Positions 11,283 through 30,873 are shown, counted from the first letter of the stretch. The stretch: 57,086 nt of DNA from a virus (IMGVR_UViG_3300030328_001660:1-57086); one strand, 5' to 3'. Notes: generated from the sequence alone by a model not told the origin. Made by a program: numbers and translations.

Positions 11283-11658
11283 TTACTTAAGGGAAAACAA
11301 TCAGATTCAAGGTCCAATTGAAGAGCCAGTACAAACCAGTACGGCAACCGTTGTAGAATCTCAAATGGTTTTTGGAGAATGGAATGCTAATAACCCAGCA
11401 ATGGATTACATGTATAGGGCTATCTCTGATACGTTAAAACAGGGAGCTGGGCTTGTTCAAGACATTATGCAAATTAATCATAAGAAGGCAATGCTAAAAA
11501 GAGAACTAGACTTAGCAGAAGCAAAGAAAGCGTACAAAACAACAATGGGAACGATGGGGGTTATGAATGAGATGTATAATGATCCGGGATATCTTGCTAC
11601 CTTTCGTGATATGATGTTCCAACTCGGGGGTTGGCATAGCGCGGGAGGCAACCGATAA
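11266..11658 (+). CDS. Hypothetical protein
   Basis: 130-aa ORF with AAGGAG RBS, coupled (TAATG) to the next gene. Confidence 0.6.
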   Translation: MVDIPNYLRENNQIQGPIEEPVQTSTATVVESQMVFGEWNANNPAMDYMYRAISDTLKQGAGLVQDIMQINHKKAMLKRELDLAEAKKAYKTTMGTMGVMNEMYNDPGYLATFRDMMFQLGGWHSAGGNR

Positions 11659-14600
11659 TGTCTAGTAATACACCTCGTTATGAAAACATCGACTCTTTTG
11701 ATGAGGGGTTTGATCCCCGAAGAAACTACGTAAGAAACAAATTATATGGGATGTATCGAGCAGAGAAAGATTCAGAAATTTATTACCCGCAACTTAACAA
11801 GATGGATGATGAAGAGCTTCTTTACCGATTTAATAACTTTGGAAGAAGTAAAGAAGAACAAAAAGAATCAGAAGAACTTTACTATCTTATGAGAGATGTA
11901 GCCTATCCCGCTGACAGCGGTGGCTTCGGTGGTGGTGGTGGTGAAAGCTACGGCATCAACACCGGAATGGATTTCCCAGCAGTGTATCCGGGAGAAAATC
12001 CTTTATTTAAAACTAGGGATGTTACTAGAACTCAACCCAAGATAGGGATTACTCCAGCCCAACAATATTTAGCTGTTGAGCCGAATCTTCCTTGGTGGCT
12101 AAGAAGTTACGGACTTTCGCCAGAAGGTATTGTTTCGCAACAAGCAGTTGCAGAAATAGATCTAATGGAAGAAGAGGAAGAGGATACCATCAAACAAAGA
12201 TACGCCGTTTATAGGGTTTGGCAAAACAAAGCAATGGCTCGAAAAACAATAGGATATGGTTTCGGCGGGATGTTACCTTACAACCCACAAGACTTTAAAC
12301 CACTACTAGCACAAATGGCTATCGCTTCTCAAACAGACGAACTAGACCCAAGTCAGGACATAATTTTAGCTGAGGTGGAAGAACATTCTGATCTGTATGA
12401 TAGGATGAGCGAGGAAATTAATAACCTTATTGTCGAAAACCCAGACACAGAACCTATTGCTATTGTCGGTTCGGTTTTAAAGAAATTTGCTAATGAAGAC
12501 AGAGATCGTTACGTTACCGGGGCTGAGCTAATGGATATGACAGAGGAAGAGATTGCAGCAGTAGGATCCCAACGGCCTTTAGTTTTTCCAAAGGTAGCTC
12601 CGTGGGTTACACAGGATAAAAGAAGTTATCTGTTTACTGCAATGACAGAATTTTCTAAAAAATTAGAAGCAAAGGCAGAACAGTTAAGTGCTGCCGCAGC
12701 AGAAAATACCAGAGAGGACCCTAACACTAATTCATTAGTAGAGGAAGTAAAGGCTGAAGCTTTAATGTGCGTAACCGAAACTTGCAAGGAACTAGAAGGG
12801 AAAGCAGCTGACTTTATTGACGACCTAAGAGAATCGGGATCCTATTCGGAAGAAGAGCTAAGAGTTATCGCGTCTGGTATGGTTGGTGCAGAAGTCACAC
12901 CAACGGAAAAGGGAAAAGAAAAAGACATGATTCCTATACTTGAGAGCTACGCAAGGGATAATTCTGCAATAACTGAAGATGATAATATTCTTACTATGGC
13001 TTTAAAGATGAAGAATATGGGAGATATCTTTAACTACCTTATTAAGCAATCCAAAGAAGGGATTGATATTCAGGCTGATTATGCCGAGACATTGAGAATC
13101 TTAAAAGAGAACGGAGTTCTGTTGCCCTTTGATCCTCAAGTAAGTCCCACCGAAATCTTAGAAAGAAGCCAAAGGCTATTCCACAACAATGTTATTATTC
13201 CTTTTACGGAGAGAAGAAATGCTTTTAGTACACCTGAAGGTAGATATCAGTTAGCTGCTGTCAATGTATTTAGGAGGTTTGTAGATCCTTCTATCAGTGA
13301 TTACTCTGATGTTTTAAGATACGTACAGAGTGCCGTATACGATACAGATCCAAACATGACCTTAAACAGAAAGATGGCAATTATAGAATTATATTCAAAC
13401 GGTAGATCAGCATTCAAAGCTTCTCTTAACGCAAGTAATGGAAGCTCTGCATTAAACAGTGCTCTTAGCGCAATAAACGCACCTCCGGGAGTTAACGCTA
13501 GGAAGCCGAGCCAGACACCTTTTGCTTTTACAGATTTTCCACCGTCTACCGCAAGACAGGACCCTCAAACATGGAACGAATCGGTACAAAATACTTACCA
13601 AAGATGGGTAGAAACTATTTCGGCAAGATCTTACGGACATATTAAGGATCCAAAAGAAAGAGCTAATATGGTTTCGGGACTTAAGAGTGTGATGCGAATT
13701 GAACAAAACGAACAAGGATTAGGAAGAATAGTTGTTGATTGGGAGTCTTCCGATCCCAGCACTCTAATACCTATTGCACAAACTTTACTTGATGAAATGG
13801 ACCAGTACAATGTTTCAGAAGTCCCCTCTATCTTAAGAGGACTAGGTATGCAAGTAACAGAAGGCTTGCAGTTAATGGGCGGTGAGATTGGAGAAAACGA
13901 GACAGAAAAAATGAAGAAGGTTTATAGGTCTTTATCTATACTAGGAATGATTTATAATCCTAAAAATGCTACTAAGGCGAAGGGTGTTAAAAGCATGATG
14001 GGCTGGAATCAGGGCGATTACTCTGCTTATCAAACAGCTATTACAGCCCTAAGAGCTGACAGCTCTGTTTTTTCTAATCTAGGAAACTTTTATGAGGCAG
14101 CTAGCGATAAAGAAAGAGCAGGGTTTTTGTCTGAGTTTGCAAGAGATTTTAATACGAGAAGTAGGGTTATTTTTGAAGCTTTAGCAAATAGAGCATCAGG
14201 GTCTGCTATTGGTTTGTCAGACACTAGGAGAGGACTGCTTACTAATACTATACAAACAAACAACTTTTTGTCTTCTGTATTTCCTTTAATGTCTTTTGGC
14301 AAATCTAGACATGGGCAAAGAACCTTACAGGATATGGGCGAAAAAAGTAGTGGCACTTCTTATGATGCCTTTAATGCGGAAGTTGAAGTAGGAGATGTAA
14401 AAGTAAGTGGATGGGATAAGATTCGAGCTACCCTACAAGAAGTAATGCCGGGAACACAGTTTAAAACTTTTGAATCATCTGATTTTACTAACCTTGCTAA
14501 TGAGCTTGGTGGTATCTTAGGATTAAATAAGGCAGACATGAAAACTCTAAGAGAAAGAGTAATAGAAGACGGTGAAGATTGGATTCCTTGGAACGACTCT

Positions 14601-15596
14601 GTAGAAAAAGGTAAACAAGAAGAAGTAATTAGTTATCTTCTTATACGAGAACTTTTAAATAATAACCAAATCGCAAACCAAATGCACACCTATGTACAAA
14701 ACAGGCATATCTATAGTAGTGAAGTTCCTGTAAACGCCGAAGAGTTTATGTCAGTAATTGGTTACTTTTATAAAAATAGTGGCGTAAACTTAAGCGGAGC
14801 TATTTCCTTAACCGATACTGCTGGAGTCTTTTCTTACAGTAGTCCTACTTTAGATAAAGACTTTGTTCATATGTTAGGAGAACAAGATGTTCTTGACGGG
14901 AATTTAGACGGAACTTATGAAACAGCTATGTCAGAAGCTTTAGCTCTTATTCCGTTTAAGAAAAGCCCACAAATGACAACACATCTAAAATCAACATATA
15001 TGGTAGCAGAGGGGACAGAAGCAAACGAACTTAAAGTAGAAATCGCCAAAGGTTTAGGACTAACAATTGACCAATATAATTCGCTTGTTGAAGAAACTAT
15101 AGACGCTTTAGATGAAGTATATGTCCCAAAACGTACCGCAAGCAGTCCGACCGCAGGTTCATTATCAAGAAGTTTTTTACAAAGTAAGCTAGATGGCGGG
15201 GCAACAAGAATTCAAACAGAAGGCGCATCTTTAGTAAGTACTCATTTAAAAATTATAGAGCTTATCCTTAGACAAGCTGAGGATATGGATGGTGATGACA
15301 AGGTATTAAACTTTAGTGGGCTAACATTAGATATGTTAAAAAGAAAAGAAGAGTTTAGGACTATTGGGGGTCTGTTGACATCTACATCTCTTAGTTATCC
15401 AGACTTAACACCAAGACTTTTATCCCCAACTCCTCAAACAATGTCTATAAGAACAGATGCTGGTCGAAAGCATCTTCTTGTGTTTGATATTGCGGGGTTA
15501 AAATCATCAGACGAAGCATCAATAGAAGTGGGAGGTGTTGCGCCAAGGCGTGTATCTCTACCCTTCATTACCTTTAGGGGAGCCAACCATAAATGA
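11658..15596 (+). CDS. Large putative internal virion protein
   Basis: 1312-aa ORF with GGAGG RBS, between the gp14-like gene and the giant protein. No catalytic motif recognised. Confidence 0.6.
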   Translation: MSSNTPRYENIDSFDEGFDPRRNYVRNKLYGMYRAEKDSEIYYPQLNKMDDEELLYRFNNFGRSKEEQKESEELYYLMRDVAYPADSGGFGGGGGESYGINTGMDFPAVYPGENPLFKTRDVTRTQPKIGITPAQQYLAVEPNLPWWLRSYGLSPEGIVSQQAVAEIDLMEEEEEDTIKQRYAVYRVWQNKAMARKTIGYGFGGMLPYNPQDFKPLLAQMAIASQTDELDPSQDIILAEVEEHSDLYDRMSEEINNLIVENPDTEPIAIVGSVLKKFANEDRDRYVTGAELMDMTEEEIAAVGSQRPLVFPKVAPWVTQDKRSYLFTAMTEFSKKLEAKAEQLSAAAAENTREDPNTNSLVEEVKAEALMCVTETCKELEGKAADFIDDLRESGSYSEEELRVIASGMVGAEVTPTEKGKEKDMIPILESYARDNSAITEDDNILTMALKMKNMGDIFNYLIKQSKEGIDIQADYAETLRILKENGVLLPFDPQVSPTEILERSQRLFHNNVIIPFTERRNAFSTPEGRYQLAAVNVFRRFVDPSISDYSDVLRYVQSAVYDTDPNMTLNRKMAIIELYSNGRSAFKASLNASNGSSALNSALSAINAPPGVNARKPSQTPFAFTDFPPSTARQDPQTWNESVQNTYQRWVETISARSYGHIKDPKERANMVSGLKSVMRIEQNEQGLGRIVVDWESSDPSTLIPIAQTLLDEMDQYNVSEVPSILRGLGMQVTEGLQLMGGEIGENETEKMKKVYRSLSILGMIYNPKNATKAKGVKSMMGWNQGDYSAYQTAITALRADSSVFSNLGNFYEAASDKERAGFLSEFARDFNTRSRVIFEALANRASGSAIGLSDTRRGLLTNTIQTNNFLSSVFPLMSFGKSRHGQRTLQDMGEKSSGTSYDAFNAEVEVGDVKVSGWDKIRATLQEVMPGTQFKTFESSDFTNLANELGGILGLNKADMKTLRERVIEDGEDWIPWNDSVEKGKQEEVISYLLIRELLNNNQIANQMHTYVQNRHIYSSEVPVNAEEFMSVIGYFYKNSGVNLSGAISLTDTAGVFSYSSPTLDKDFVHMLGEQDVLDGNLDGTYETAMSEALALIPFKKSPQMTTHLKSTYMVAEGTEANELKVEIAKGLGLTIDQYNSLVEETIDALDEVYVPKRTASSPTAGSLSRSFLQSKLDGGATRIQTEGASLVSTHLKIIELILRQAEDMDGDDKVLNFSGLTLDMLKRKEEFRTIGGLLTSTSLSYPDLTPRLLSPTPQTMSIRTDAGRKHLLVFDIAGLKSSDEASIEVGGVAPRRVSLPFITFRGANHK

Positions 15597-18500
15597 CCAG
15601 TCAAAACTTAAACGCATGGGCTACCAGTGATTTACCTTTTTACTTTCGTGACAATGAAGAACAGAATCAAGGCATTAGAGAATGGAGTGAGTTTACAGAA
15701 GGATTTAAAAAACTATCAGAACCTTCGATTGTCGGTGGAAGAACTCCTGACATTAGTGATTCTTGGTCTATTGATTTAGAAACTGGTGAGTTAGTTCGTG
15801 GTGTTTATGATATTACGACAGCTATGACACACGGGTCTTACTCTTCATACTATGGCGGTATGTTCGAGGATAACCAAGCTCGAAGCAAGTACTCAGCAAG
15901 AATGCAATTGGGTGCTTACAAGCATGACCTCTATAAAGGTACGGCTCTTGAGTTTAGTGAGAAGGACAAGAAACTTTTAAATCACTATGCAAGTAAAAGT
16001 GCTTGGAACTTGTCTAGATTAGGCGACCCTTTTCGTGATGAACAAGAAGAAGCAGGCGTAGACCTTTGGGATGTACCCGTATTTACAAACTTTAATGAAA
16101 CTCCCGATAACATTATGGGAAGAGACGCTCCAGAAGGATGGGATCCTCAGCAAGCGTTAGAGGTTTTAAAATTAAAAGACCCTCAAATGTATTCGGTGTA
16201 CCTAAATACTCTAGGCGGCAGAGAAAACGTAGACGACTTACTCTCCGAAACCAAAAACCCCTACGACTTTTTCTATACACTAACAAACGAAATGCAGCAA
16301 ATCGCTTATATGCGAACTCAAATGGAGTGGTGGAAAACTGCTTCAGCGAGTGAAGTCGTAACTGAATACGTATATAACTTTGTTGTCGAAGGCATTGCTA
16401 ACGATCCAGACTTTGCTGCTTCTATGGGAATTAGTTTAGGAATTAGTGCAGGTACGGCTGGAGTTGGGGCAATACCCTCTTTTATTGTTGCAGCAGCAGC
16501 CAAAGTACTAAAAACTGGAATTAATTTTGCAAAGTTCTTAAAGTGGACGGCAAGATTACAGAATAGAATGAATCAACTCCAAAGATATCTGCCAGAAAAC
16601 TTGGGTCCGACTTTGGTAAATAAAATTCCACAAGTAAAAAGCTTTGCGCAACACGGTAAGTTTGCCCAATTCTCAGTAAATAGACTAGGAGATGTAGGTG
16701 AAGGTTTAATTACTGGTGGCTTAGCTGAAATTGGAAACCAATACAGACAATTAGATGCCGGTACTTTAGATTCATTTAGTGTTACTAGAGTTATTAACGA
16801 GTCTTTAATTGAAGCGGCCTTTTCTCCTGCGGTAAACCCTGCAATCGGCGGACTATACAAGGGTATAGGGGCATTAGGTTCTTTAGGATCCAATCAAATT
16901 GCCGTGCCTTTAGCTAATGCTCTACTAGGTGAAAACTCTGTAAAGGGGATCTCTAATTTTGTAGGGAAAATAGGAAGGACTGCAAACCCGCAAGCATTAG
17001 CAGAGCGTCTTGAGCTGATTGAAATTAATACTGAGATTAGAGCAGAGCTTGAAGCATTGACTTTAGAAGGAACTGATATTGAAACGGGAGTCGAAGAAGA
17101 TACAGACCCCACTAGTCCTACCGGAGTCATTAGTGCTGTTATTGCCTCGTTGTTTGACGAAACAGGAATGAGTAAGGCAGAATTCCTAACGTCAGTAAAA
17201 GAAATCCTTACTGATTTTAGGGAACAAGCAGACAACCCAACAGATGCTCGAAGACCTAAGGAAGGCAAAGAACAAGAGGTTGTACTAGCCGAACTCGCAC
17301 AAGAGCTTGTAAACAGAAACCAAGAAGTAATCCTAGAAAGAAACGACGGGAATAAGCAAGTCTTTGCCAATATCCTAGGATGGACCAAGCAGCACATTAC
17401 TCTTGCTAAGCAAGCTGCTAAAAAAGGAATGAGCTATAAAGACTATGTAAATCAAATTATTGAAAGGGGAGAGGAATTTAACTTAGTTCCTAATGATATT
17501 AGAAAGGCTGTTGTAGAAAAATTAGGTGAGAAATTTAAAGACGCAACTACAGAAGAAAGGCTGGAGGTTGCTAAAGAAATTCTACAAGAAAGAATTCAAG
17601 AACAGAAGAAAGCAATTACCGAGTTTAATCAAAGAACCGATGAAGGAGAAGCTGAAGCCGATGCAAGAGATGAGGATATAGACGGAATCGATCCCGATCC
17701 AGCAGACCCTGCTCCAGCAGATCCAGAGCCTAAGCCCGTAGACCCAGAGAAACGAAAGGGAGATGATGACCCTAAGGATCCCGGACTTGAAGGAGGAGAA
17801 GGTGGTCCTCCAGCAAGAAAGAGATCAGAAGATCCCTTAGTTAGGCGAGAGGAACTAAAACGAAAATTAGAAAAACAGAAGAGAGAACTAGAGGCTTTAA
17901 AAAAGAAACTAGAAGATAGACTAAAGAGCGATCCAGATCCTAAAATTAAGGAGAAAGTAGAAAAGGTTCGGAGTTTAGTTCTATCTGTAGAGAAGCAACT
18001 TGAGACAGTAACAGTAGATTTAAATCAAATGCTAGCCGACCACGCTATTGATAACGCTGAACTTAAGCCTTTAGTAAATACCCTGATAGATCTTCGAGAT
18101 AGGTTACACAAGATTTCAGAAGATTTGAAAGTTGACCAAGAAGATGACAAGGGAGTAATCTGGTCTTATTTTAGGGCTAAGAGATTTGAAGCGTTGCTTA
18201 CAAAATTAAACAGGCTCTATATCGAGGAAGGAGAGGGTGGAAATGTTAAGTCAGCTGATATAAGTCCTGAACTAAGACAAACGCTTGAAGATATTAAAAA
18301 AGAATTAAAGGATGATAATTCAAAAACAGCAGATAGAATGAAGCAATACATAAACGGAGTATTAGCGGGTACAGAAAAACAAATGACTCCTAAGACGATC
18401 TCACAATACCTTGTTAGGGGTGGTCAGGTAATTAAAAGTCACATGGAGCGGCTAGAAAAAACTGACCTATACAAAGAGAACAGTGCTCTAGTTAAAGAGT

Positions 18501-21500
18501 TTAACAAAACCCTAAGGGACTATAAGAGAGTTATCGCTAATATCCAAAGGGGAGAAACCCTAAACGATATTCAGAAATTCTTCGCTATTCAATTACAACA
18601 AACTGGTGCTAGAGCACAACGAAAAGAAACGGAAGTATTTGAAGCCAAAGAAAAGCTGTTTAATGATATGATTGGAGATAAGGAAGCAGAAGGAGAAACG
18701 GTTACGGTAAACGAACTTCTTCCTGTTCTTCACCAGTTCTCTGAGTGGCGACAAAATAAAGAAGCAGTTGTAGAAGAAAACCCTGAAAAAGGTGAAAAAG
18801 AATACACAATAGAAGAAGCAAAAGAAATCTTTGGTAAGGAAGCCGCAGCCGTAAAACAAAAGATTAAAACTCTATCCATCGGAAAACTACAGAACCTTAG
18901 AGCGGGCGGGCGGTACTCTTACATTCGTGGAGATTACGAACACAACTACAATGATTCTGATGTATTGGGAACATCTTACGACCCCGAGTATGTACTAGAG
19001 AGATCAAACGAAGACGGTAAAGAACTTGATCCTGAAACTGTAGACGATACAGCAGAGATGATAGTTGAGCCAGAAGGTCTTGACGATATGAAACAAGCTG
19101 ACCTTAACAAGTTTATTGACGATGTAATGGGAGGCGAAGGAGGAAAGGGCGGAAAAAACAAGGATAAGGTTGCCCGCATTAGAGCGTGGATTGCTAATAA
19201 AAACGCCGAAGTTAAACCAAAAAGAACAGGACCAGCTTACCTTCCTTCACCAACTGTAGTTTACGAGACTCTAGATGCGGCGGATGGTTCAAGTTTATTT
19301 GAGGATTCTTTCGATGTACGAAATGCAGAAGCTCGGGAAGTTGGATTTGAAGACTATTTTCACGCTGTAAATTCCTATAATCTATATGTTATTGGGATTC
19401 ACAAAAATAAAGAAAACTTTGCAAAGGCTGCAAAAGGAATAGGAAGAAAGGAAATAAAGGAAGCGTGGGATGCACGAAGCAAACTATCGGAAAAACAAAG
19501 AGACGCAGCAAAGGCACAAAAAATAAACTTAGTAAAGCAAATGAAGAAGGAACTAAGAACTGAAGATATTGTCTTTACTAGGTCTTTGGATAAGGACGTA
19601 GAAGCTTGGATACAATTTGAAGCAGCCTTAGACATGTTAGCTACTAAGGCAGATCCTACCAAAGGAATTGCAGCTTGGAGAATTAACCAAGCAATGCCAG
19701 CTTACCTTAGAGATTACGTAGGGCTTAAACCCTATGTTGTGTTTGGTAGAGAGAATGTATTAGGGAAGTCACACTCCGCTCTAATGCCTTCTGATGTTGT
19801 AGATGTAGATATGGCATCTGCTACTGACCGACAAGTTGTCCAACATACCTTAAGGTATAGACCGGAAGAACTTTTAAATATCGCAAGAGCTTGGAAAGAA
19901 AGAGGAGTAGCTAAAATCGACGGATGGCAAAAGCAAGAACTTGCCAATGTTTTAGATACCCTAGAAGCTCAAGCAATGGATGAGTCCAACCCTAATTCAG
20001 CAGCAAACCTTTACTATACAATAGCCTTTATTGAGAGACTAGAGAGTGCGAGTGAACTTGTAAATAGAGAGCTTTTTAAAATGAGACAGGAAAAGAGAGA
20101 CGGCGGTTGGATTATGGAAGTAGACGGGGATACAGGGTTTCCTATTAAATTCACAAAGGATGAGAGCACTTGGATTGGCGATGCACGCGGACACATAAGA
20201 GATAGAATAAACTCTCTAATCGAAAGAAGGCAAACCAGATCCTTAAGGAACATCGCTGAAAAATTCGGCTTGACTCTAGAAGAACAACGAAATGAATTCC
20301 ATTTCCCAACCTATGTAATAACAGACGCAGAAGGTAATATATCTGATAATGTAGCTGACGTTATTATTGAGAGTATGAGAACTGAACTAGAAGGACTACA
20401 TGAAGGCCAACTATCTTTAACTAAGTTAGGTAACGGAGAATACGGATACGGCTCTTCTAAAAACGTAGGCTATGCTGTTGTAGATTTCTTAAGTGATAAG
20501 GAAATGCCTTCTATCCAAAGTCTTACGGCTATTACAGATAAGGATGGAAAGGTAATTCCAGCACAAGCAGACGAAGATACTGAAATTAAGGGACAGCCTA
20601 CAAATGTTCGACTTCCTATAGAAGGGGAAGTAAACCACGCTATGCCTATTCCAGCAATGAAGCTGGCAGCTTTAGTATCTAACTATAAAGCAAGAGAACG
20701 AATGAGGTTTATTCTGGGTAAGGAAAAATTTACTCCAAAGGAAAGAGAAGCCTATAAGGCGTGGGTAGAAGCTAAGTGGTCAGACATTAAATCTGAACTC
20801 AAGGATCCAGATCCTACAGGAGAGCAAGTTCCTTTTGCTGTTATTCCTCAGATTGTAGGTAACAGGTTGCACGAACAAGTAATGAAGAGATCTGAAGTGA
20901 AGGCATTTATTATGGAACTTCTTTTAGATGTGCCTCGAAATGCAGAAGGATTTATTCACGATCAGGTTACTAGAAGGCGTGGAAGTCGTTTGATGTTTAA
21001 TGAAGGAATGGAAGAAGGTATAGTCCAAGTAGTCGATAGAGATGGTAATATTGTTGATAGGGACATTAAAAACCTAGACAAAGATCAAGGCTTAATGGTT
21101 GACCTTAGTCACGGAGATCACATTCTAGTACCTTTAGGAAGAATAGGAGAAATCCTTGCAATTGAGGCAATGGGTCCAATGTTTAAGGGACTAACAAGTG
21201 TCGCTGTTGAAGAGGTAATGAAACTTAGAGATAAGAGAGAAGCTGACGGTACGGGAACATCTATAAATGATTTCCTTTCTAATGATAACTGGAGTGACCG
21301 AGTTGCTAGTGGCGTGTTTGAGATGAAACTGATGTCATTAGCAAATGACCCTAACGCTACTATTGAGGTTGACGGAAAGAAGATGACCGCCGAAGAAATT
21401 ATGAATGGAATTTTAGATGGGACTTTCAAGAGAAAGGAAAAGACTGAGCTTGACTTTTATATGCGAGGTGCGATTACTGCCGGTAGAAACAATACAGACA

Positions 21501-24500
21501 CCTCGACTCAGATTGGAAAAATCTTTGAGCTTATAAAAAAGCGAGATATTAAAACAATGGATGATATCGTTGCTTTAGAAGAGCTAGGTAAAACAGATGA
21601 AGATGCGGCTAAGGATTCACAAGAAATCGCGAAACTTAGAGGAGTTTTTAAAGTACCTATTCTAAGAAGAATTTACGGCGGCGGTCAAAAGAACTTTGAC
21701 GAAGAATTTGCGGAGGGAGGAAAGGGCTATGATGCGATGAAAGAATCAGGCATTGAGCCTAGCACTGAAAATATTGCTGCACTTAAGAAGATTCTATTTT
21801 CTAAGATAGGGGTTAGTGCCTCTAAATCTTACCTCATTGACGTAGCATTAGGAGTTGACGAAAAAACTAAAAAACTTGTACACTCTTATTTAAGGATTGA
21901 ACAGGAAAGGGACAAGCCCTTGTTAGAGGCTTGGAAAAACTTAATGGATATGGACAATAAAACATTAAGTAAGGAATTAGAAAACTCCATAACTCATATT
22001 GATTTGCTAGATAAAAAGCTGAGGCAACTATATAGGTTAGATAAATCGACAATGACATTTGAAGAATGGAAAAAAGTCAAGGGATACGACGAGAGGTTTG
22101 AGGCTGCTAAAAAATTCTTAACAGAAAAACATGAAGCGGGAGATGCAATCCATCCCGGCACTGATAACTACGCTGAGTTTAAAAGAATGGTTTCCGGCGT
22201 TGGCGGTAAACTAACGGCAGAATCTATTGGTTACTTAAGGGCATTAAACATCCTTAACTCTCAAGAATATAGAATAAATGCGGAGAGAATTAAAAACGCA
22301 GCGGAACTCTTGGGGTTAAAAGATTTTGATATAACAGATTATTTAGGGTTTGAGGCACACGCTGTATATCAAGTTATGTTACCCAGTGGAAACTCAGGAA
22401 GAACCTATAACACAAGAAACATGGGATTAGATACCTTAGGGATTTCTTTAGAAAGAGTAGCGAGAGTTTCTCAGTATACACATGAGGGCATTACTTACGA
22501 AAGCTTCTCTGACTTCCTTGAATCTGGCGCAGCACCTACAGATAAGGCAGTGCTCACCCAGCTATTTGAGGATTTCTTAGCCCAAGATAGCGACAATGCA
22601 GATGCCTTGGGGGCCTATGATCTTGCTGATCCTTTCTTAAGAGATCAAAGAGATGCGGGCAAGACAGACGAAGAGTTAGAACAAATCGTAGAAGACTTAA
22701 TGATTAAGCAAGAAATGCTTCTTTGGTCAAGCTACGATAGGCCGCCATCAAGTGTATTCCCTGACTATACAGTAGAAGATTCGGATGTTGGTTTGTTAGG
22801 AAATATCCTAAGGGAATGGTATTCTCACTCTGAAGGAAGGCATGAATCCTTACGAGATGAGATGAGAAGAGAAATGGACCATTGGAATAGGGAAGGAGAA
22901 AATAGTAAGTTCCTTGCTCTTAAAAATAAATCCGGTGGTCTAGTCAATAAGAAGGTTGTGGACGCTTCTAATGGTGCGTACCGATATACGCCATATCACG
23001 TTTCTGAAAACAACCCTACGTCAGTAATGCTTCATACAGCAGGCCAAAGGGGACCACTGGCAATGCGACCGAAGTATAAGGAATCTCAATACCATGATGT
23101 AGGTTTCTTCGGTCTACAAAAGCTTCATATCCAAGAGAGATTAGAAAGACTGCTTGGGCCTTTACACACTATTAGGCGAAACCAAAGAGAACTATCTGAC
23201 GAAGAAGTAATGGTAGGAGGAACTAATATTGGTGGGTTCTCTCCTTGGAACGCGGCTGAACTACCGCAAGTTATTCCAACTCTCCCAGCAAACATGGCTG
23301 CTGAAGTAGGAACTCCTGCTGGAGTAAGGGCAGCACAACTATATTACGAAACTCATATGTGGGCCACAGAAAGAGGATTACAAGAGCAGTTAGAAGCGGA
23401 CCCAGAAAACTTTGCAAGGTTCTACATTATTAGGGAGATTGAAAGGACAAGGCAAGACATTCACAGAAGAGTTAGAGAGGATGATGTTATAGCCGACTCT
23501 GATGTTACTGCCCATAGAAACGCTTGGGTAAGTGGACTGCATGATGTTGTCCGATACTCTCGGGATATTAAAAACCCAGAACCAAGAAGAAAGCTAAAGA
23601 TGTTCCCTGAAGGAGAACAATTCGCTGCTGTTAATCCTATTGCTGACGACTTAACTTATTATGAAAACTTAACCAGCGTCCTTTCAGAAGATAACCCAGA
23701 AGGTATCTTACTTAGGCGTAGTATCTTAGATGGTGAATTTAAGATGGGGCAAGCTCCTGACTTTAACTTAGTAATTGACTTGGATGAAGGTGCGGGGGAA
23801 ATGAATCTCTTTGAGTTTAGTGACTTAACCGAAGATGCGTGGGCAGTCCAGAACGCAGACTTTAATAAATTCTTAGCTGCCCAACTATTTACTGAAGCCA
23901 TTGGTAATGCCCTTAAAAACTATAAAGACGGTAAGTATGCAAAGTATGCTATGAGACCAGATGACTGGGAAACAGAAATTGGTGAAGGACTAACAACAGC
24001 AGAAGCTATAGCAGAAAGACAAGAGATACTACAAATGGCAAGGGAGTACGTAGCAGCTCTTCCTTCCTATACTTTGGAAGTAGGTATAGAAGAAGTACTG
24101 TACGATGACGCTAAGGGTCGAGGAAAGAAAACCAATAAATATAGGTTAGCTTTTAAACGACCTTCAGGAGAAGGGCAGGCACAAAAGGGTGTATACGGGG
24201 CTGCCGTAGGTTTTGGCATGACATTTATGACCTCTCAAAAGATTAGCGCAACAAGTGGTAAGTTCCTTCTAGGAGAAGGCGAAGCTTTAAAAATGTTTAG
24301 TATATTAGAGAACGCTCAAACAATGGAAGGGATTAACCTAAGCAATTGGCTTAACAAGGGATTAGGAATTAAAGTAGCTGCGAACGGTCAAGTAGTAAGA
24401 GCTGTACCTCTGCACGAACGTGTAGCAGACGCTTTAGGATACAGTGCTAGACCTATTAGGGATGCAGCCCTTACTAATTCTGAATCTATTAGCAGGGCTT

Positions 24501-27500
24501 CTGCTGGAGAAACAGGCTTAAGTGTAGTGCAAATGATCACGGCTGGTGAAGGGTTAAGTGTAGAAGGACGGGCAGTAACTGTTGTAGATTTAGATTACTA
24601 CGCAAGGGATGGGTCTGGTTGGGACGACGGAGACTTAGGAACAGCAACTTTTGCTTGGCTTGAGTCTTATATTAGCCCAGTTAAGAAACTAATTCGTATG
24701 ATTGATCAATCAGGGATTAATCCTGCTAGTCCTTTGACAGCAGTCAGAGGAGAACTTGTAGCATTAATAGCTGCAACAAGAGAAGGAGATGCAGCCTCGG
24801 GAATTGTTTTAAGATTGCTAGCACTTAAATTAGAAAATCCATTTTTAAGGTTAGACGGAGCAGGGCGAAAGGTAGAGATTTTCTTTAGTGAGAAAGATAG
24901 AAACGCAGAGAACTGGGGTGAATTACTACAAAGAGCAGACAGTTTAAGCACTAGTATTAAAACACAGATTTCAGACGAAGGGGTTCGCCTCAATAATGAT
25001 TTACACTATGCTGCTATGCAGTTTATCATGCTTGGAAAGACAGATATAAACAGCACGGATTTTGATACCTTAGTAGAGAACTTTAGAGAATTTTTAGGGA
25101 AGGACTTAGAGTTGACCGGGAGAAATGTAGAAGAAGAATTACAAGGAGCCTTAAGAGGGGCTGTTCTACATGGTAAAAGGGTTCCAATTACAAGCTCCGA
25201 TTCTATCTTTGCACAGGATTGGGATGAAGGTGACTTCGATTTAATGGCTGATTTTGCTTCTAACTACACAGCAGAAACACCTATTGAAAGATTGCCAGAA
25301 CAATTCAGGCCCCTATTTAAGGGACCCATATTGCAAATCGATAACCTAGTTGCAGACGGACGAATTACAAGACAAGAAGCTGTAACTATAAAGGCTATGC
25401 TATATAGAGCTTACTCTTTAAATCCAGAAATCATTCTTGGATTAACATTTGAGTCTTTGACAGAATCCATTAAGGGAGGAGCTGAAGCAGAACGAGCTGG
25501 GGATCAGTTTACAATTAGAATAGGCTCTAACTTTAGATCAGTTGCTAAGGACAATCCCCTTACAGCGATTGAAATATTTGCTCACGAAATTGCACATATC
25601 GCAAGGTTAAAATTTATTGCAGATAATTCCAACGAGTTTAACGAGCTAATGGGCCTTTATCAAAGCAAAGAAGGAAAGGTAGTACTAAAAAAAGCTGTAC
25701 TAGCTTGGCACGGGGGTGTATGGACTAAGGAAGCAAGAACAGAGTTTGAAAAATATATAGATGACCCTACTGGAGAAGAATTTATTGCTGGGTTTACGTC
25801 TTTATACTTACTTGCAGATGTAGCTCCAGTAATTAGAGACCTAAACAAAAAAGAATTAACAATCTTTGGAAAAACAGTAGCTGCTGTAAAGAGAATCTTT
25901 AGTTATATTTCTACTACTATGGGTAGGTTACAGATTGCTTTCCATACAGAAGACCCAGAGTTTAATAAGGCTATAAGAAGAATGTCTTTGAATGTATTTG
26001 GTTATGACTCAGGTACGGATGGGCATAGAAGCCAGTTTGATAGTACTGCCGTATCAGATGCTAGATTTGGTTGGGATGCAAAGCATAAGGGAAGTGTCTT
26101 ACCAAAGGTAGATGTTGAAAAGGATTTAGAAATACTAAGGCTTAATCAGAGGTACGTTGAACTGAAAGAAAGCGAAAGTAGAACAAGTGACGAAGAAACA
26201 GAATTAAATAACATTATAAATACTATGACTGAAGATCCTTATGCAAGTAGCGCGACAGGATTAACTTCGCATGGAGGAGAAGGCGGTACATTTACTAGAT
26301 GGGAATACATCACTACTTTAGACACAGTAAAAGAAAAATACGCTCCTCAGGCTAAGACTAGATCTGAATTAGAAGAGCCTAGTAGAAATCCAACGGGATC
26401 GGGAATTATTGATTTTGGTATGTTGATGGCTGAGGGTACATCCCAAGAAAAAGCAGCAGCTTTTGTTTACCTAAACGAAGCACTACTAAATACTTACGGA
26501 GAACCAGTTAGTAGAGGGCTAGGAGCAGTGGCAAACAAAATGCTTTCTAAAGGGGCAAGAGATAAGGTTATTGCAGCTTTAATTGGCAACACAGGACATG
26601 AATCAACATGGAACTCTAACTTCTTGATTCCCATAATGCTAACTACTCTCATTGATGATAACATCGCTACAGTTTCAGGATCGTTTACTAATCCAAGAGG
26701 AACTCCTTCTGTTAGAAAAATCCTAGGAGAACTAGAAAACTTTTCGGGTCAAATGAGAAGTAATAAGACAACAATAGTTAAACTGATACAAAACAAAATG
26801 ACATCCTTGTGGAAAGGAGAAGGGGTCGCTGGAAAAAAAGCTAACTTGATTTTAGAAACATTAAATATACAAGTTATTGAAAGCGTTTCACAAAGAAATG
26901 AAACTGAAGGAAAATACGAATTTGATTTATCAGAAAAAGCCATTGGTGTTGCTTTAGACGAAGACGTTAAAAAAGAAATAGCTGAACAGTTGCATGAGAT
27001 GTCTGAAGTATTTGTACAGATGGCTTTAAGAAATGTAACAAACGGTAAGGCTATTGGAGAATTTGGAGAAGGATTTACTAGCGTAGTTCCTTATAGACTA
27101 GGAACATCGCTGGATATTGAAAACATTTCCGGTGAAGCAGTCTTTGTAGATACAATGAAAGGTCTTATTTCCCAAAGACTTTTAACAAAACTAGACGAAA
27201 GTGGAATGGTTGAAGGAACTATTTTACTAGCAAACGGAACACTACCTCACTTAACAAATGACAACCAAGCTTTTAATGACCTTAAAAAACTTAAAGATAA
27301 CTTCCCATCAATATATGGATTCCTTTTAGAAAGTGCTGTAGACCAATTGGGAGGAGATAGAGATAGAGAGTTAAGGGTAAGATCTTTAGATAACAGACTA
27401 CAGAGTAAAGAATTCGATGCTTTAATTAAAATACGACATTCTTCTCTAAAGTTAATGAATCAACTAACTAAAGGTAATATTACTTTACATACTTTATTTA

Positions 27501-29887
27501 AAGATTCAGGAACTAGAAGAGAACGACAACGATTTGAAACTGAATACAAGCATATGGTTAGTGCAGCCAAAGAAAGCAGCGACAATGTAGCCAATAGATT
27601 AGAAGGGTTAACCGTTAAGAGCTACGAGGTTTCTCCCAATATAAAGGCAAGATCAACTGTTAAAGCAGGAAGAATTGCAAAATCTTTAGGAGTACCTAGA
27701 GATGCCATTACACATATATTTAGAAACTTCTTAGAACGGTCTGCGGTAGGAGCATACTACCCTAACGATAACTTTGCACTTCCAGAAGTAAATGAAACTT
27801 TGCAAGCTAATGAGCAAATGAAAAAATACTTTGTCGTAGATATTACAAGTTTGTCTGAAAACGCAAGGCACGGTCTATATAACGAAACTGCCGAAAAACT
27901 TATGATGAGAGAATTTGGAGCACACGCTACTGTTTCGCAAGTTTTAGATCTAGTAGAGTCTGTAAATACATCTTCATATGGTATTCTAGACGCAGAAGGA
28001 AATAGTTCTAGGGAGCAGACTGAAGCAATTAAGACAAGTGTAGAGGTCTTAAGAAATAAACATGACACTATTAGAAAGATAAGAAACACTAACGAACTTA
28101 AATCTACCAATATACTTGACAGTGCTGTTCCAGAGTATGGTAACGCAATTACTCGAATATCATTTGGTGGCAACTTGTTTATGGCAACCACTATTGTAGA
28201 AAATGGATTTGCTGCACTAGACGAATTACTTGGAAGAGGGAACATCACTGGTTTTGTAAGAAGTGCCTTTGCACCATTCAGTGCTATTACAAACAGAAAG
28301 GAAAGGGCTAGAGTTCTAAAGGACCACGCCTACCTTATTGATTCCATGACCCAAGGATTTTTACCTGAATTTGAAAAACCCTTTGGAGGAAGAGAAGACT
28401 CTGGGCCATTGAAATTCCTTAAAGGGTGGGGATCACAACAGATGCGATTAGCTAAGTGGCAGTTAAAAAACATTTCTGCTGCCCGTGCTGTTAACCTAAG
28501 ATCCTACATCCAATCTACACTGGAGCTAGATAAGAAGGGGAATCGACCTCTTATTCGTTTGGCTGAAATTTTAGAAAACCCCAGTGACTTTAGTGAGGTT
28601 AGTTTTAACAGGGAAATAAGTCAGTTACCAATGGATAAACAAGAGGCCGCATTAAAGGAGGCTCTTCGAGTAGCGGGCATTAGTAGTTACGCAAATCTTG
28701 GAATTATTACCTACCTTATGAAAGCAGGACTTCTTCGGACTGATAAGCTAAACATGCTTTTAGAAATGATGCCAGAAAACGGACGGTACAGTCCCTTTGA
28801 AATGAGTCACGAACTGTTCTCTAGTCACTCAGAAACTACAGATACTAAAGACTACAACGATAAGCTAGACATAATTACGGGTCTAAAAGAAGCTGAAAGA
28901 TCCTACATCGAAGAGGCTATCCTAGCTCCAAATGCTTTTGATACTCAAACTCAAGAACTAGGAACAGCCGGAGCATTGTTTGAGATCTATCGAAGATATC
29001 CAGTTCTTTTTGTTTCTCAACAGCTTATTAGAAAGTCAAGTAGGGCTAGTCCCATGAGGGCAGGAATGGGTCTAGCTAGTCTCCTCCTTCTAGATATCAT
29101 GTATATGGTAGCTTTGCAGCTAGCTGCGGGTGTAACAATGGACGAGATTATTGAAGAGTTTGAACAAAACGGATTTGCTAAAACAACAAAACTGATAGCC
29201 AGAACACCACTAATGGGACGTTATTTAGCAATGATTGCTCCGATAGCATCTTTAGGAGCTAAAGCTATTAGCGAGGGAAAAATGTTCGGTGCATTTGACT
29301 TGCAAAGAGAACTAGCAGCAAATTCAGGGTTTATTCCTTTAGCTGCTTTAGGACAAGGTTTAGGGGCTGGCATTACCGGAATACAAACTACAGGGGCTTT
29401 GATGGGCTTAAACGACATGCCAGTAGGTCAAGACATCTTAAACGCAACAAGAGTTATTCCGGGAGCAGACGCAGCTTTAAGACTTAGCGTATACTCTCTG
29501 GCCGGAGACGGAATTGAGAGAAAGGATAGGAGATCTTCCAGTAGAAGTACTAGATCAGGAGGAGTTGGAACTAATCAGGTAAGGAATGTTCACTACGGAA
29601 TGAGGCAAGACGAGGCACTAACCACTTGGGAGTACTATGCCCGTGACATGTATAAGGAAGTATTAGGAGAAGGTGTTGTCCCACAAGCAATTCAAGAATA
29701 CCACTCACAGCTTCAGCTTATGAATAGCTTAGAAAACACAATGGCCCCGCCCGCCGCACAAACACCCGCGCCGCCCGAACCCGCGCAGCCGGAGATCACT
29801 ACCTCTATTTCCAAACCCGAGAATATCGTAGAAGCAATCATAGACAGAAAGCCTGAGAAGGCACCGGAGGGTTTACTGGACTCATAG
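15593..29887 (+). CDS. Giant (4764 aa) internal virion protein with a single-subunit RNA-polymerase-like domain and a zincin HExxH motif (candidate virion RNAP / polyvalent protein)
   Basis: Motif A-like 'SDRVASG' (nt 21296) then 'ELDFY'. Motif B 'RGVFKVPILRRIYGG' (R-x3-K-x7-YG, nt 21638-21679). 'FAHEIAH...EEFIAG' (nt 25583). Gly/Ala hydrophobic segments near both ends. The ORF is certain; function is inferred. Confidence 0.6.
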   Translation: MTSQNLNAWATSDLPFYFRDNEEQNQGIREWSEFTEGFKKLSEPSIVGGRTPDISDSWSIDLETGELVRGVYDITTAMTHGSYSSYYGGMFEDNQARSKYSARMQLGAYKHDLYKGTALEFSEKDKKLLNHYASKSAWNLSRLGDPFRDEQEEAGVDLWDVPVFTNFNETPDNIMGRDAPEGWDPQQALEVLKLKDPQMYSVYLNTLGGRENVDDLLSETKNPYDFFYTLTNEMQQIAYMRTQMEWWKTASASEVVTEYVYNFVVEGIANDPDFAASMGISLGISAGTAGVGAIPSFIVAAAAKVLKTGINFAKFLKWTARLQNRMNQLQRYLPENLGPTLVNKIPQVKSFAQHGKFAQFSVNRLGDVGEGLITGGLAEIGNQYRQLDAGTLDSFSVTRVINESLIEAAFSPAVNPAIGGLYKGIGALGSLGSNQIAVPLANALLGENSVKGISNFVGKIGRTANPQALAERLELIEINTEIRAELEALTLEGTDIETGVEEDTDPTSPTGVISAVIASLFDETGMSKAEFLTSVKEILTDFREQADNPTDARRPKEGKEQEVVLAELAQELVNRNQEVILERNDGNKQVFANILGWTKQHITLAKQAAKKGMSYKDYVNQIIERGEEFNLVPNDIRKAVVEKLGEKFKDATTEERLEVAKEILQERIQEQKKAITEFNQRTDEGEAEADARDEDIDGIDPDPADPAPADPEPKPVDPEKRKGDDDPKDPGLEGGEGGPPARKRSEDPLVRREELKRKLEKQKRELEALKKKLEDRLKSDPDPKIKEKVEKVRSLVLSVEKQLETVTVDLNQMLADHAIDNAELKPLVNTLIDLRDRLHKISEDLKVDQEDDKGVIWSYFRAKRFEALLTKLNRLYIEEGEGGNVKSADISPELRQTLEDIKKELKDDNSKTADRMKQYINGVLAGTEKQMTPKTISQYLVRGGQVIKSHMERLEKTDLYKENSALVKEFNKTLRDYKRVIANIQRGETLNDIQKFFAIQLQQTGARAQRKETEVFEAKEKLFNDMIGDKEAEGETVTVNELLPVLHQFSEWRQNKEAVVEENPEKGEKEYTIEEAKEIFGKEAAAVKQKIKTLSIGKLQNLRAGGRYSYIRGDYEHNYNDSDVLGTSYDPEYVLERSNEDGKELDPETVDDTAEMIVEPEGLDDMKQADLNKFIDDVMGGEGGKGGKNKDKVARIRAWIANKNAEVKPKRTGPAYLPSPTVVYETLDAADGSSLFEDSFDVRNAEAREVGFEDYFHAVNSYNLYVIGIHKNKENFAKAAKGIGRKEIKEAWDARSKLSEKQRDAAKAQKINLVKQMKKELRTEDIVFTRSLDKDVEAWIQFEAALDMLATKADPTKGIAAWRINQAMPAYLRDYVGLKPYVVFGRENVLGKSHSALMPSDVVDVDMASATDRQVVQHTLRYRPEELLNIARAWKERGVAKIDGWQKQELANVLDTLEAQAMDESNPNSAANLYYTIAFIERLESASELVNRELFKMRQEKRDGGWIMEVDGDTGFPIKFTKDESTWIGDARGHIRDRINSLIERRQTRSLRNIAEKFGLTLEEQRNEFHFPTYVITDAEGNISDNVADVIIESMRTELEGLHEGQLSLTKLGNGEYGYGSSKNVGYAVVDFLSDKEMPSIQSLTAITDKDGKVIPAQADEDTEIKGQPTNVRLPIEGEVNHAMPIPAMKLAALVSNYKARERMRFILGKEKFTPKEREAYKAWVEAKWSDIKSELKDPDPTGEQVPFAVIPQIVGNRLHEQVMKRSEVKAFIMELLLDVPRNAEGFIHDQVTRRRGSRLMFNEGMEEGIVQVVDRDGNIVDRDIKNLDKDQGLMVDLSHGDHILVPLGRIGEILAIEAMGPMFKGLTSVAVEEVMKLRDKREADGTGTSINDFLSNDNWSDRVASGVFEMKLMSLANDPNATIEVDGKKMTAEEIMNGILDGTFKRKEKTELDFYMRGAITAGRNNTDTSTQIGKIFELIKKRDIKTMDDIVALEELGKTDEDAAKDSQEIAKLRGVFKVPILRRIYGGGQKNFDEEFAEGGKGYDAMKESGIEPSTENIAALKKILFSKIGVSASKSYLIDVALGVDEKTKKLVHSYLRIEQERDKPLLEAWKNLMDMDNKTLSKELENSITHIDLLDKKLRQLYRLDKSTMTFEEWKKVKGYDERFEAAKKFLTEKHEAGDAIHPGTDNYAEFKRMVSGVGGKLTAESIGYLRALNILNSQEYRINAERIKNAAELLGLKDFDITDYLGFEAHAVYQVMLPSGNSGRTYNTRNMGLDTLGISLERVARVSQYTHEGITYESFSDFLESGAAPTDKAVLTQLFEDFLAQDSDNADALGAYDLADPFLRDQRDAGKTDEELEQIVEDLMIKQEMLLWSSYDRPPSSVFPDYTVEDSDVGLLGNILREWYSHSEGRHESLRDEMRREMDHWNREGENSKFLALKNKSGGLVNKKVVDASNGAYRYTPYHVSENNPTSVMLHTAGQRGPLAMRPKYKESQYHDVGFFGLQKLHIQERLERLLGPLHTIRRNQRELSDEEVMVGGTNIGGFSPWNAAELPQVIPTLPANMAAEVGTPAGVRAAQLYYETHMWATERGLQEQLEADPENFARFYIIREIERTRQDIHRRVREDDVIADSDVTAHRNAWVSGLHDVVRYSRDIKNPEPRRKLKMFPEGEQFAAVNPIADDLTYYENLTSVLSEDNPEGILLRRSILDGEFKMGQAPDFNLVIDLDEGAGEMNLFEFSDLTEDAWAVQNADFNKFLAAQLFTEAIGNALKNYKDGKYAKYAMRPDDWETEIGEGLTTAEAIAERQEILQMAREYVAALPSYTLEVGIEEVLYDDAKGRGKKTNKYRLAFKRPSGEGQAQKGVYGAAVGFGMTFMTSQKISATSGKFLLGEGEALKMFSILENAQTMEGINLSNWLNKGLGIKVAANGQVVRAVPLHERVADALGYSARPIRDAALTNSESISRASAGETGLSVVQMITAGEGLSVEGRAVTVVDLDYYARDGSGWDDGDLGTATFAWLESYISPVKKLIRMIDQSGINPASPLTAVRGELVALIAATREGDAASGIVLRLLALKLENPFLRLDGAGRKVEIFFSEKDRNAENWGELLQRADSLSTSIKTQISDEGVRLNNDLHYAAMQFIMLGKTDINSTDFDTLVENFREFLGKDLELTGRNVEEELQGALRGAVLHGKRVPITSSDSIFAQDWDEGDFDLMADFASNYTAETPIERLPEQFRPLFKGPILQIDNLVADGRITRQEAVTIKAMLYRAYSLNPEIILGLTFESLTESIKGGAEAERAGDQFTIRIGSNFRSVAKDNPLTAIEIFAHEIAHIARLKFIADNSNEFNELMGLYQSKEGKVVLKKAVLAWHGGVWTKEARTEFEKYIDDPTGEEFIAGFTSLYLLADVAPVIRDLNKKELTIFGKTVAAVKRIFSYISTTMGRLQIAFHTEDPEFNKAIRRMSLNVFGYDSGTDGHRSQFDSTAVSDARFGWDAKHKGSVLPKVDVEKDLEILRLNQRYVELKESESRTSDEETELNNIINTMTEDPYASSATGLTSHGGEGGTFTRWEYITTLDTVKEKYAPQAKTRSELEEPSRNPTGSGIIDFGMLMAEGTSQEKAAAFVYLNEALLNTYGEPVSRGLGAVANKMLSKGARDKVIAALIGNTGHESTWNSNFLIPIMLTTLIDDNIATVSGSFTNPRGTPSVRKILGELENFSGQMRSNKTTIVKLIQNKMTSLWKGEGVAGKKANLILETLNIQVIESVSQRNETEGKYEFDLSEKAIGVALDEDVKKEIAEQLHEMSEVFVQMALRNVTNGKAIGEFGEGFTSVVPYRLGTSLDIENISGEAVFVDTMKGLISQRLLTKLDESGMVEGTILLANGTLPHLTNDNQAFNDLKKLKDNFPSIYGFLLESAVDQLGGDRDRELRVRSLDNRLQSKEFDALIKIRHSSLKLMNQLTKGNITLHTLFKDSGTRRERQRFETEYKHMVSAAKESSDNVANRLEGLTVKSYEVSPNIKARSTVKAGRIAKSLGVPRDAITHIFRNFLERSAVGAYYPNDNFALPEVNETLQANEQMKKYFVVDITSLSENARHGLYNETAEKLMMREFGAHATVSQVLDLVESVNTSSYGILDAEGNSSREQTEAIKTSVEVLRNKHDTIRKIRNTNELKSTNILDSAVPEYGNAITRISFGGNLFMATTIVENGFAALDELLGRGNITGFVRSAFAPFSAITNRKERARVLKDHAYLIDSMTQGFLPEFEKPFGGREDSGPLKFLKGWGSQQMRLAKWQLKNISAARAVNLRSYIQSTLELDKKGNRPLIRLAEILENPSDFSEVSFNREISQLPMDKQEAALKEALRVAGISSYANLGIITYLMKAGLLRTDKLNMLLEMMPENGRYSPFEMSHELFSSHSETTDTKDYNDKLDIITGLKEAERSYIEEAILAPNAFDTQTQELGTAGALFEIYRRYPVLFVSQQLIRKSSRASPMRAGMGLASLLLLDIMYMVALQLAAGVTMDEIIEEFEQNGFAKTTKLIARTPLMGRYLAMIAPIASLGAKAISEGKMFGAFDLQRELAANSGFIPLAALGQGLGAGITGIQTTGALMGLNDMPVGQDILNATRVIPGADAALRLSVYSLAGDGIERKDRRSSSRSTRSGGVGTNQVRNVHYGMRQDEALTTWEYYARDMYKEVLGEGVVPQAIQEYHSQLQLMNSLENTMAPPAAQTPAPPEPAQPEITTSISKPENIVEAIIDRKPEKAPEGLLDS

Positions 29888-30779: not shown

Positions 30780-30873
30780 AATCGACTAGGGGGTCGAAAA
30801 TTTATCTGGGGGCATGTACAGTAAATGGGAATCCTGTTTTCCCCCTTAACCCCTTGTTCTTGAAAGGAACAAA

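Follow-up and report, generated by a model that had tools for sequence, protein, structure and literature searches.

A giant cysteine-free candidate ejection protein of a T7-supergroup podophage with an RNA-polymerase-like motif-B segment in its conserved core

Does a T7-like phage carry, within a giant protein that would be delivered from its virion, an RNA polymerase (RNAP) of the kind injected by phage N4? The question is raised by the phage record IMGVR_UViG_3300030328_001660:1-57086, whose 57,086 nucleotides (nt) were analyzed in full and are called the window here. An open reading frame (ORF) on its + strand, at 15593..29887, encodes by ORF call and translation a protein of 4764 amino acids (aa) with 0 cysteines, a candidate ejected internal-virion protein. 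A sequence-only reading had recognized an RNAP-like domain buried in this protein and had proposed either an injected virion RNAP or a motor that pulls DNA in. We found that the core of the protein is not a demonstrable member of the T7/N4 RNA polymerase family and that its likeness to these enzymes is confined to the motif-B/O-helix segment. Of the earlier proposal, the injected virion protein fits the late-module position and the lack of cysteine, but the polymerase was not borne out by either the profiles or the predicted fold. The explanation that we favor, tentatively, is that the protein belongs to a new family of giant cysteine-free ejection proteins with a conserved helical ligand-handling core that is distantly or convergently RNAP-like.

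All of the motif strings that had been quoted are present in the ORF where they had been placed, and the strings with which they had been compared (T7 DGSCSG and QDIY, N4 DGVTNG) are correct. They all lie on the + strand in a central conserved core, mostly helical by prediction, which was delimited by alignments and AlphaFold2 (aa 1600-2700, 20390..23692). The motif-A-like D-x3-S-G is SDRVASG (aa 1901-1907, 21293..21313), which stands within NWSDRVASG and forms part of NWSDRVASGVFEM (aa 1899-1911, nt 21287-21325); its D1902 starts a predicted helix. ELDFY (aa 1952-1956, nt 21446-21460) contains D1954-F-Y (21452..21460), a D-x-Y like T7 QDIY and N4 NDLY, and the motif-B/O-helix-like segment RGVFKVPILRRIYGG (aa 2016-2030, nt 21638-21682) reads R2016-x3-K2020-x7-Y2028-G-G. 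Upstream of the other motifs, EGFIHDQVTRRRGSRLMF (aa 1785-1802, nt 20945-20998) contains H1789 and D1790 in the motif-C-like FIHDQ (aa 1788-1792, 20954..20968), which is located 226 residues before motif B and is the sole h-h-H-D string (h, hydrophobic) in the protein.

The conservation of these residues was counted in a 34-row alignment of homologues of 23-60% identity, using only the rows covering each column; the family alignment is shallow, with about 25-30 rows, and rows L019 and L020 show the motif strings of P0006 and P0003 and are possibly the same proteins. Most of the residues singled out earlier proved to be conserved, namely D1902 (28/28), R2016 (28/28), K2020 (28/28), Y2028 (28/29, with one F) and D1790 (30/30), whereas H1789 is present in just 17/30 rows. 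In addition, S1906 is found in 26/28 rows, G1907 in 22/28 and D1954 in 17/18, while G2029 of the motif-B-like segment occurs in only 12/29. The invariant positions between aa 1600 and 2700, many of them charged or polar, include D1631, R1703, D1790, E1858, D1902, S1906, D1954, R2016, K2020, Y2028, N2219, R2270, R2288, E2427 and E2472. This conservation of polar residues over such diverged homologues supports a functional core. As a pattern, R-x3-K-x7-[YF]-G alone appeared in 1715/20000 residue shuffles of the giant protein (8.6%), and the collinear series D-x3-[SND]-G / D-x-Y / R-x3-K-x7-[YF]-G in 2/20000, a figure that is optimistic because the spacing ranges were set after the sequences had been seen.

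The alignment also bears on where the remaining polymerase motifs might lie. The earlier observation that there is no clear motif C downstream was corroborated, since no Asp column is present in at least 16/18 rows between aa 2031 and 2700; the next conserved Asp residues after motif B are D2756 and D3472 (17 full-length rows). The seven residues preceding D1902 are mostly polar in all rows, indicating a polar loop and not an alternating hydrophobic/buried strand. FIHDQ had been suggested as a degenerate DxRGR, an assignment at odds with the family, in which the Arg/Gly after FIHDQ are not conserved: the stretch following D1790 is VTRRRGS in the window and RVAKGVP, TAAKTDR, SVSQNNP and others in relatives. 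Three further candidates were set aside. IEVDG (D1927), on which the merged-profile alignment described below places motif A, is absent from many family members; VVDLD (24581-24595, aa 2997-3001), which follows a hydrophobic strand-like stretch, has Asp in 13/17 and 9/17 rows with no invariant DxD; and the Lys of KIDG at aa 1441 is not conserved.

To compare the core with known enzymes, three profiles were built, from 10 N4-like virion RNA polymerase (vRNAP) domains, 6 T7-like RNAPs and 18 giant-family cores. As a positive control, the N4-like profile was compared with the T7-like profile by HHalign, which gave a probability of 80% and an expectation value (E) of 1.4e-5, with six catalytic residues in register (N4 R424/D559/R666/K670/Y678/D951 on T7 R425/D537/R627/K631/Y639/D812). 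The giant core gave E 0.19 against the T7-like and E 0.068 against the N4-like profile, neither of which is significant. These weak alignments put R2016/K2020/Y2028 on T7 R627/K631/Y639 and N4 R666/K670/Y678, and D1954 on T7 D569 and N4 D610. Furthermore, when all six reading frames were searched with PF00940 at E<=10, the 818-aa RNAP of the phage was the only match in the record, and the giant ORF had none.

A merged N4+T7 profile raised the regional score to 36.4 (E 0.0084, probability 4.7%), with aa 1756-2036 aligned on N4 377-686. When the T7-like and N4-like profiles were used separately, 4-5 unrelated windows scored much the same as the motif-B windows. With the merged profile, the motif-B windows were the two best among 51 windows of 180 aa, scoring 27.7 and 27.4 (the rest having a mean of 16.0, a standard deviation of 2.7 and a maximum of 25.4), and among 236 windows of 60 aa the motif-B window ranked first, scoring 27.4 (mean 12.6, standard deviation 2.8, next 20.4). 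When template blocks were compared with the 4764-column family profile, the motif B block landed on aa 2012-2036 with a score of 26.0, which was reached by 0/25 column shuffles (13.1±1.7, maximum 16.2; with only 25 shuffles for each block, these are small HHalign nulls). This was the top of 72 template blocks, the next real block scoring 20.4; since the tiling of the 72 blocks gave an equally good match outside the region (20.4, aa 3263-3280), motif B is the only outlier. The motif A, D-x-Y and motif C blocks had no match in the whole family profile, and three other conserved blocks matched aa 2215-2236, 2276-2292 and 1746-1761 weakly. A T/DxxGR with an invariant Arg upstream of motif A was not found; the best match of this block lies downstream, at aa 2276-2292, with a score of 18.4 that was reached by 1/25 shuffles. 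The FIHDQ window had its best local match in the T7-like profile at T7 806-814 (E 0.16-0.21, not significant). A permuted enzyme, with FIHDQ as motif C and the weak ALN..W.IN, GR..NPQ and PNFxHS block matches as its other parts, was rejected as evidence because the implied order (vi, B, i, ii) is no circular permutation and an equally good match exists outside the region. A K-x-P in the motif-B-like segment also recurs in N4-like enzymes (as KNP) and in some of the T7-like ones (as KRP). These findings indicate that the segment at aa 2012-2036 is the only robust RNAP-like signal, and that it is convincing both in sequence and in its predicted context.

That context comes from two AlphaFold2 models, of aa 1600-2700 (53 rows; predicted local distance difference test, pLDDT, 70.9; predicted template modelling score, pTM, 0.60) and of aa 1685-2135 (34 rows; pLDDT 69.5), with pTM values for the pair of 0.56-0.60. 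The first is almost all helical and the second gives the same picture. The motif-B residues fall on a long, confidently predicted helix (aa 2003-2027, pLDDT >90), and, as expected of an O-helix, this helix stops at Y2028. The palm sheet that a polymerase fold would lead one to look for is not seen in either model, though at low model confidence. With Foldseek, the first model had 0/21 listed matches at E<=0.001 in PDB (best E 3.4) and 0/71 in BFVD (best E 0.023, mostly tape-measure-like helical proteins), and the second had 0/42 in PDB (best E 0.98, helical bundles); the T7 and N4 polymerases were not among the listed matches of either model. The suggestion of a motor likewise found no P-loop support, the sole Walker-A-like string, at aa 1994, being located in a variable linker.

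What, then, is the protein? Its cysteine content is the most distinctive property. None of its 4764 residues is a Cys, whereas the remaining 26 ORFs of the window together contain 156/11135 (1.40%), and by arithmetic the chance of finding none at that rate is roughly 1e-29. Cysteine is also absent from 13/17 distinct full-length homologues, the others having 1-7. Among reference proteins, N4 gp50 (0/3500), T7 gp16 and T7 gp15 have none, T7 gp14 has 1, and the N4-like vRNAP segments have none either (0 Cys in 10/10); the six T7-like RNAPs, which are made in the cytoplasm, have 7-14 Cys each, and the phage's own PF00940 RNAP has 14. The complete lack of cysteine, as in N4 gp50 and T7 gp15/gp16, is thus good compositional evidence for packaging and ejection. 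Cysteine depletion is used here as an empirical signature taken from the reference proteins that were compared, and is not known to be a published criterion. In the available text of a 2022 ejection-protein review (PMC8954989) the words 'cysteine' and 'disulfide' are absent, and full-text literature searches, covering main texts, turned up no account of the protein family or of ejection proteins that lack cysteine.

The position of the gene agrees with such a role, its late-module location being confirmed: the giant ORF is the end of the late gene block, and the genes for tail tube A, tail tube B, the fibre/spike and the large terminase all lie upstream of it on the same strand. Directly 5' of it is a 1312-aa ORF (11658..15596, + strand) that is Cys-poor by count (2 Cys) and possibly encodes a second internal-virion protein; this ORF had no family match in the library scans and gave nothing against N4 gp50, T7 gp15 or T7 gp16 by HHalign. 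Two upstream ORFs, at 9562-10263 (233 aa) and 10275-11282 (335 aa), contain 0 Cys each. The giant ORF itself had nothing above threshold in Pfam or PHROGs (the best Pfam trace being Phage_lysozyme2, E 0.061, below threshold) and no PDB-sequence match by phmmer; a 5-row profile found no match in PDB sequences, and two ESM Atlas queries were without usable match. Since no similarity to N4 gp50 or T7 gp14-16 was found, the proposed role in the virion and in ejection is drawn from context and composition.

A tblastn search with aa 1601-2700 of 50,697 phage records had no match, and the search of IMG/VR found only 2 relatives. Metagenomic protein sets yielded 3 close full-length relatives (35-53% identity, on contigs of 63-71 kb) and, at E<=0.001, 53 family representatives, many of 4.6-5.6 thousand aa and the remainder fragments; overall, the family members are metagenomic proteins of about 4.5-5.6 thousand aa. 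No homologue had an informative name in any source. The ORF is intact, with its length kept, in at least 17 distinct full-length homologues, and conservation is even over the whole 4764 aa, with no peak in the core (17 full-length rows). Judged by its sequence, this family of giant ejection proteins appears to be new: the kinds represented by N4 gp50 and T7 gp15/gp16 are known, and membership of either fails the sequence tests.

Packaging, ejection, ligand binding and catalysis are what we infer for the giant protein. It would be packaged in the capsid and ejected through the tail at infection, and by position and composition it may be the counterpart of T7 gp15/gp16 and N4 gp50. Its core, of ~1100 mainly alpha-helical residues by prediction, would display the invariant polar set D1790, D1902, D1954, R2016, K2020 and Y2028 as a ligand-handling site, in which a basic helix could grip phosphate, either of a nucleotide or of a nucleic-acid backbone, next to acidic and probably metal-binding residues. 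Such a site would function at the cytoplasmic face once the envelope has been crossed, during genome entry or the early take-over of the host. According to the part of the work of Hardies et al. 2016 drawn on here (PMC4819975), podophage internal virion proteins do host cytoplasm-directed domains, the N4 vRNAP included. Three results weigh against this proposal. D1790 and D1902 lie in stretches of pLDDT ~40-55 (~54 for the SDRVASG motif) with only 2-residue strands nearby; Pfam, PHROGs, PDB sequences, ESM Atlas and Foldseek name no ligand or activity; and a 17-row full-length profile compared by HHalign with N4 gp50, T7 gp14, gp15 and gp16 reached a best E of just 0.089-0.62.

The most direct alternative is that the core is a true but extremely diverged, possibly rearranged single-subunit RNAP of the pol-I type, injected in the manner of N4 to transcribe the early genes, with D1902 or D1790 as catalytic aspartates and R2016/K2020/Y2028 on the O-helix. 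We consider this unproven and rather unlikely, although the motif-B signal and the composite pattern cannot easily be set aside. Motif B is in register with T7 and N4, scores far above its nulls and has the K-x-P in common with these enzymes; it is preceded by a collinear D-x3-[SN]-G and D-x-Y at spacings of 52 and 62 aa, compared with 51 and 56 in N4, in a composite pattern that very few shuffles reproduced. The regional score of the merged profile (36.4, E 0.0084), the freedom from cysteine seen in all N4-type vRNAPs examined and the 63-71 kb contigs of the relatives also fit. However, PF00940 was without a match even at E<=10, the HHalign values for the core (E 0.19/0.068) are far from that of the control (1.4e-5), the blocks for motif A, D-x-Y and motif C matched nothing, and the residue that the merged profile takes as motif A belongs to the poorly conserved IEVDG. 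There is no conserved T/DxxGR Arg and no invariant Asp after motif B within the core, and G2029 is kept in few rows. The weak block matches, in the order vi, B, i, ii, do not form a circular permutation and are no better than the off-region match of 20.4, neither AlphaFold2 model has a palm sheet, and Foldseek returned no polymerase. Moreover, the phage already encodes a complete T7-type RNAP, and the hairpins of its early region look like RNA structures (~13-bp stems, one GAAA loop) and not like N4-type promoter hairpins. The specific version, in which a T7-supergroup lineage injects a 4.7-thousand-aa protein with a rearranged pol-I-type core whose FIHDQ lies upstream, or whose second Asp comes from elsewhere, is in our judgement unlikely.

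Another unlikely reading is that the region is purely architectural, forming a helical trans-envelope conduit or core stack as T7 gp15/gp16 do, with the invariant residues serving folding, oligomer contacts or gating. Both models are almost all helical (pTM 0.56-0.60), the best BFVD matches, although not significant, are tape-measure-like helical proteins, and conservation is spread evenly over the 4764 aa without peaking in the core; T7 gp15 and gp16 are described as forming helical tunnels in the available text of PMC8954989. Yet many of the invariant core positions are charged or polar, which would be unusual for a scaffold at 23-30% identity, the likeness to motif B would have to be a coincidence (~2 in 20000 for the composite pattern), and there is no similarity to T7 gp15 or gp16. 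It is hardly credible that the motifs arose by chance in a stretch free of constraint. The motif-B pattern alone does appear in 8.6% of shuffles, and RNAP-like motifs had also been read in a 619-aa ORF that has no Pfam, PF00940 or significant HHalign match; but the motif residues are invariant in 28-30 rows down to ~23% identity and the ORF is intact in at least 17 full-length homologues, and this conservation excludes pure chance.

N4 gp50, the virion RNA polymerase of phage N4 (Schitoviridae), has 3500 aa with a central 1106-aa mini-vRNAP. Like it, the window protein is a giant Cys-free podophage protein with a central domain of ~1100 aa between long N- and C-terminal regions; the two share the motif-B pattern R-G-x-x-K-x-P-x5-Y-G, with 7/14 residues identical, and a D-x-Y ~55-60 aa upstream of it. 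In contrast to N4 gp50, for which a further source is PMC13492108 (in part), the window protein is 1264 aa longer and has no conserved T/DxxGR, no motif C after motif B and a different motif-A context; Foldseek found no polymerase fold, and neither the core (E 0.068) nor the full-length protein (best E 0.28) reached significant profile similarity. The phage also differs from N4, since its replication and morphogenesis genes are of T7 type and it encodes a T7-type RNAP as one intact chain. Compared with the PF00940 RNAPs in general, the core has the R-x3-K-x7-Y on a helix, the D-x3-[SN]-G, the D-x-Y and an h-I-H-D string, but it has no PF00940 match and no predicted palm sheet, its IHD stands upstream of the other motifs and not downstream, and it belongs to a protein with 0 Cys, unlike the 14 Cys of the RNAP encoded in the same window.

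With T7 gp15/gp16, the giant protein shares a late-module place in a T7-like phage, freedom from cysteine, a helical character and a hydrophobic segment near the C-terminus. This strongly hydrophobic segment (aa 4494-4512, 29072..29128, + strand) has a Kyte-Doolittle mean of 1.96, and a second hydrophobic segment, which is Gly/Ala-rich, lies at aa 282-306 (16436..16510, + strand; Kyte-Doolittle 19-residue mean of at least 1.5). C-terminal membrane helices are reported for T7 gp16-like proteins, which span 609-1337 aa, in the available text of the 2022 review (PMC8954989). With 4764 aa, the window protein is ~3.6x the largest gp16-like protein listed there, has no sequence similarity to gp16, and contains no lytic transglycosylase domain by Pfam, where the sub-threshold Phage_lysozyme2 is the only trace; moreover, its gene comes after the terminase gene and not between those of tail tube B and the fibre. 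As a concept, a large ejected protein with embedded enzymatic modules resembles the IVP-D family described in part of Hardies et al. 2016 (PMC4819975), the modules being in this case an HExxH that is invariant and an RNase-H-superfamily insert found in two relatives; membership of IVP-D is not shown, the comparison having been made with T7 gp16 and N4 gp50 as single sequences only.

The zincin motif is HEIAH at aa 3331-3335 (25583..25597, + strand). It takes the form HExxH...E, with at least 16/17 full-length homologues having the identical residue at each of H3331, E3332, H3335 and E3396, and a Pfam search of the giant ORF gave no peptidase family match for it. Two homologues, P0004 and P0024 (aa 3013-3115), contain an inserted RNase-H-superfamily, exonuclease-like domain, PF13482, that is not present in the window protein (31.1 bits for P0004, of which a 234-aa stretch was scanned, and 22.8 bits for P0024, cut-off 22). 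In P0004 this insert is upstream of the zincin motif, and a second insert is found at roughly aa 1290-1420; five further homologues that were scanned had no Pfam match. The RNase-H-superfamily inserts, located in the later part of the protein, would fit a nucleic-acid-directed cargo.

The significance of the core depends on which explanation holds. A polymerase here would mean that phages other than the N4-like and crAss-like ones also inject RNA polymerases, and that the pol-I active site can work with its motifs rearranged. A rearranged polymerase, if true, would constitute a second, independent lineage of virion RNA polymerases, would connect the ways in which T7 and N4 infect, and would be the first enzyme of the pol-I type whose motifs depart from the canonical order. 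Should the core be something else, the family still exceeds the largest gp16-like protein listed in the available text of PMC8954989 by the factor given above while being conserved throughout, and the invariant zincin motif together with an enzyme-like 1100-aa core offers a concrete target for learning what podophages deliver besides DNA. The zero cysteine content common to the family, the N4-type vRNAPs and T7 gp15/gp16 could also be used to screen metagenomic phages for ejected proteins simply by composition, and cysteine depletion could be a general signature of such proteins.

The source record is an IMG/VR contig, estimated to be 85% complete, of an uncultured phage, which is a marine podophage of the T7 supergroup. 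The record contains T7-type morphogenesis genes (tail tube A, tail tube B and a fibre/spike bearing a T7 fibre N-domain), a large terminase with ~40% identity to its counterparts in marine T7-like pelagi-, roseo- and cyanopodophages, and T7-type replication and transcription genes for a gp4-type primase-helicase, a family A DNA polymerase and the ordinary T7-type RNA polymerase of the phage (818 aa, 42672..45128, + strand; PF00940, E 3.4e-81; phrog_414). It opens at tail tube A, and no portal or major capsid gene was recognized among 20 ORFs in the PHROGs scan, which agrees with the completeness estimate.

The guanine-cytosine (GC) content is 0.47-0.57 at 30-36 kb (30001-36000) and ~0.37-0.44 elsewhere, and this GC-rich block coincides with small early-looking ORFs after the late block. 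A 194-aa ORF that follows the giant gene (30195-30779) has a Dockerin_1 trace below threshold (E 0.0017, 19 bits, cut-off 22.9). The 619-aa ORF (31948-33807), which lies in the GC-rich block and had earlier been called a compact second RNAP, contains DEAGRFY and KPISKNCLLPGPYG; it was matched neither by Pfam nor, at E<=10, by PF00940, and single-sequence HHalign comparison with the T7-like and N4-like profiles gave E 0.15-0.29, which makes it uninformative as a positive control. Long intergenic hairpins occur after the ends of early genes, at 31223-31253, 31721-31755 and 31883-31916. Their interpretation as N4-type promoters was rejected by eye on account of their long stems, the GAAA loop that one of them has and their siting after gene ends. 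Two of these hairpins share sequence and end in GTGAGGATT.

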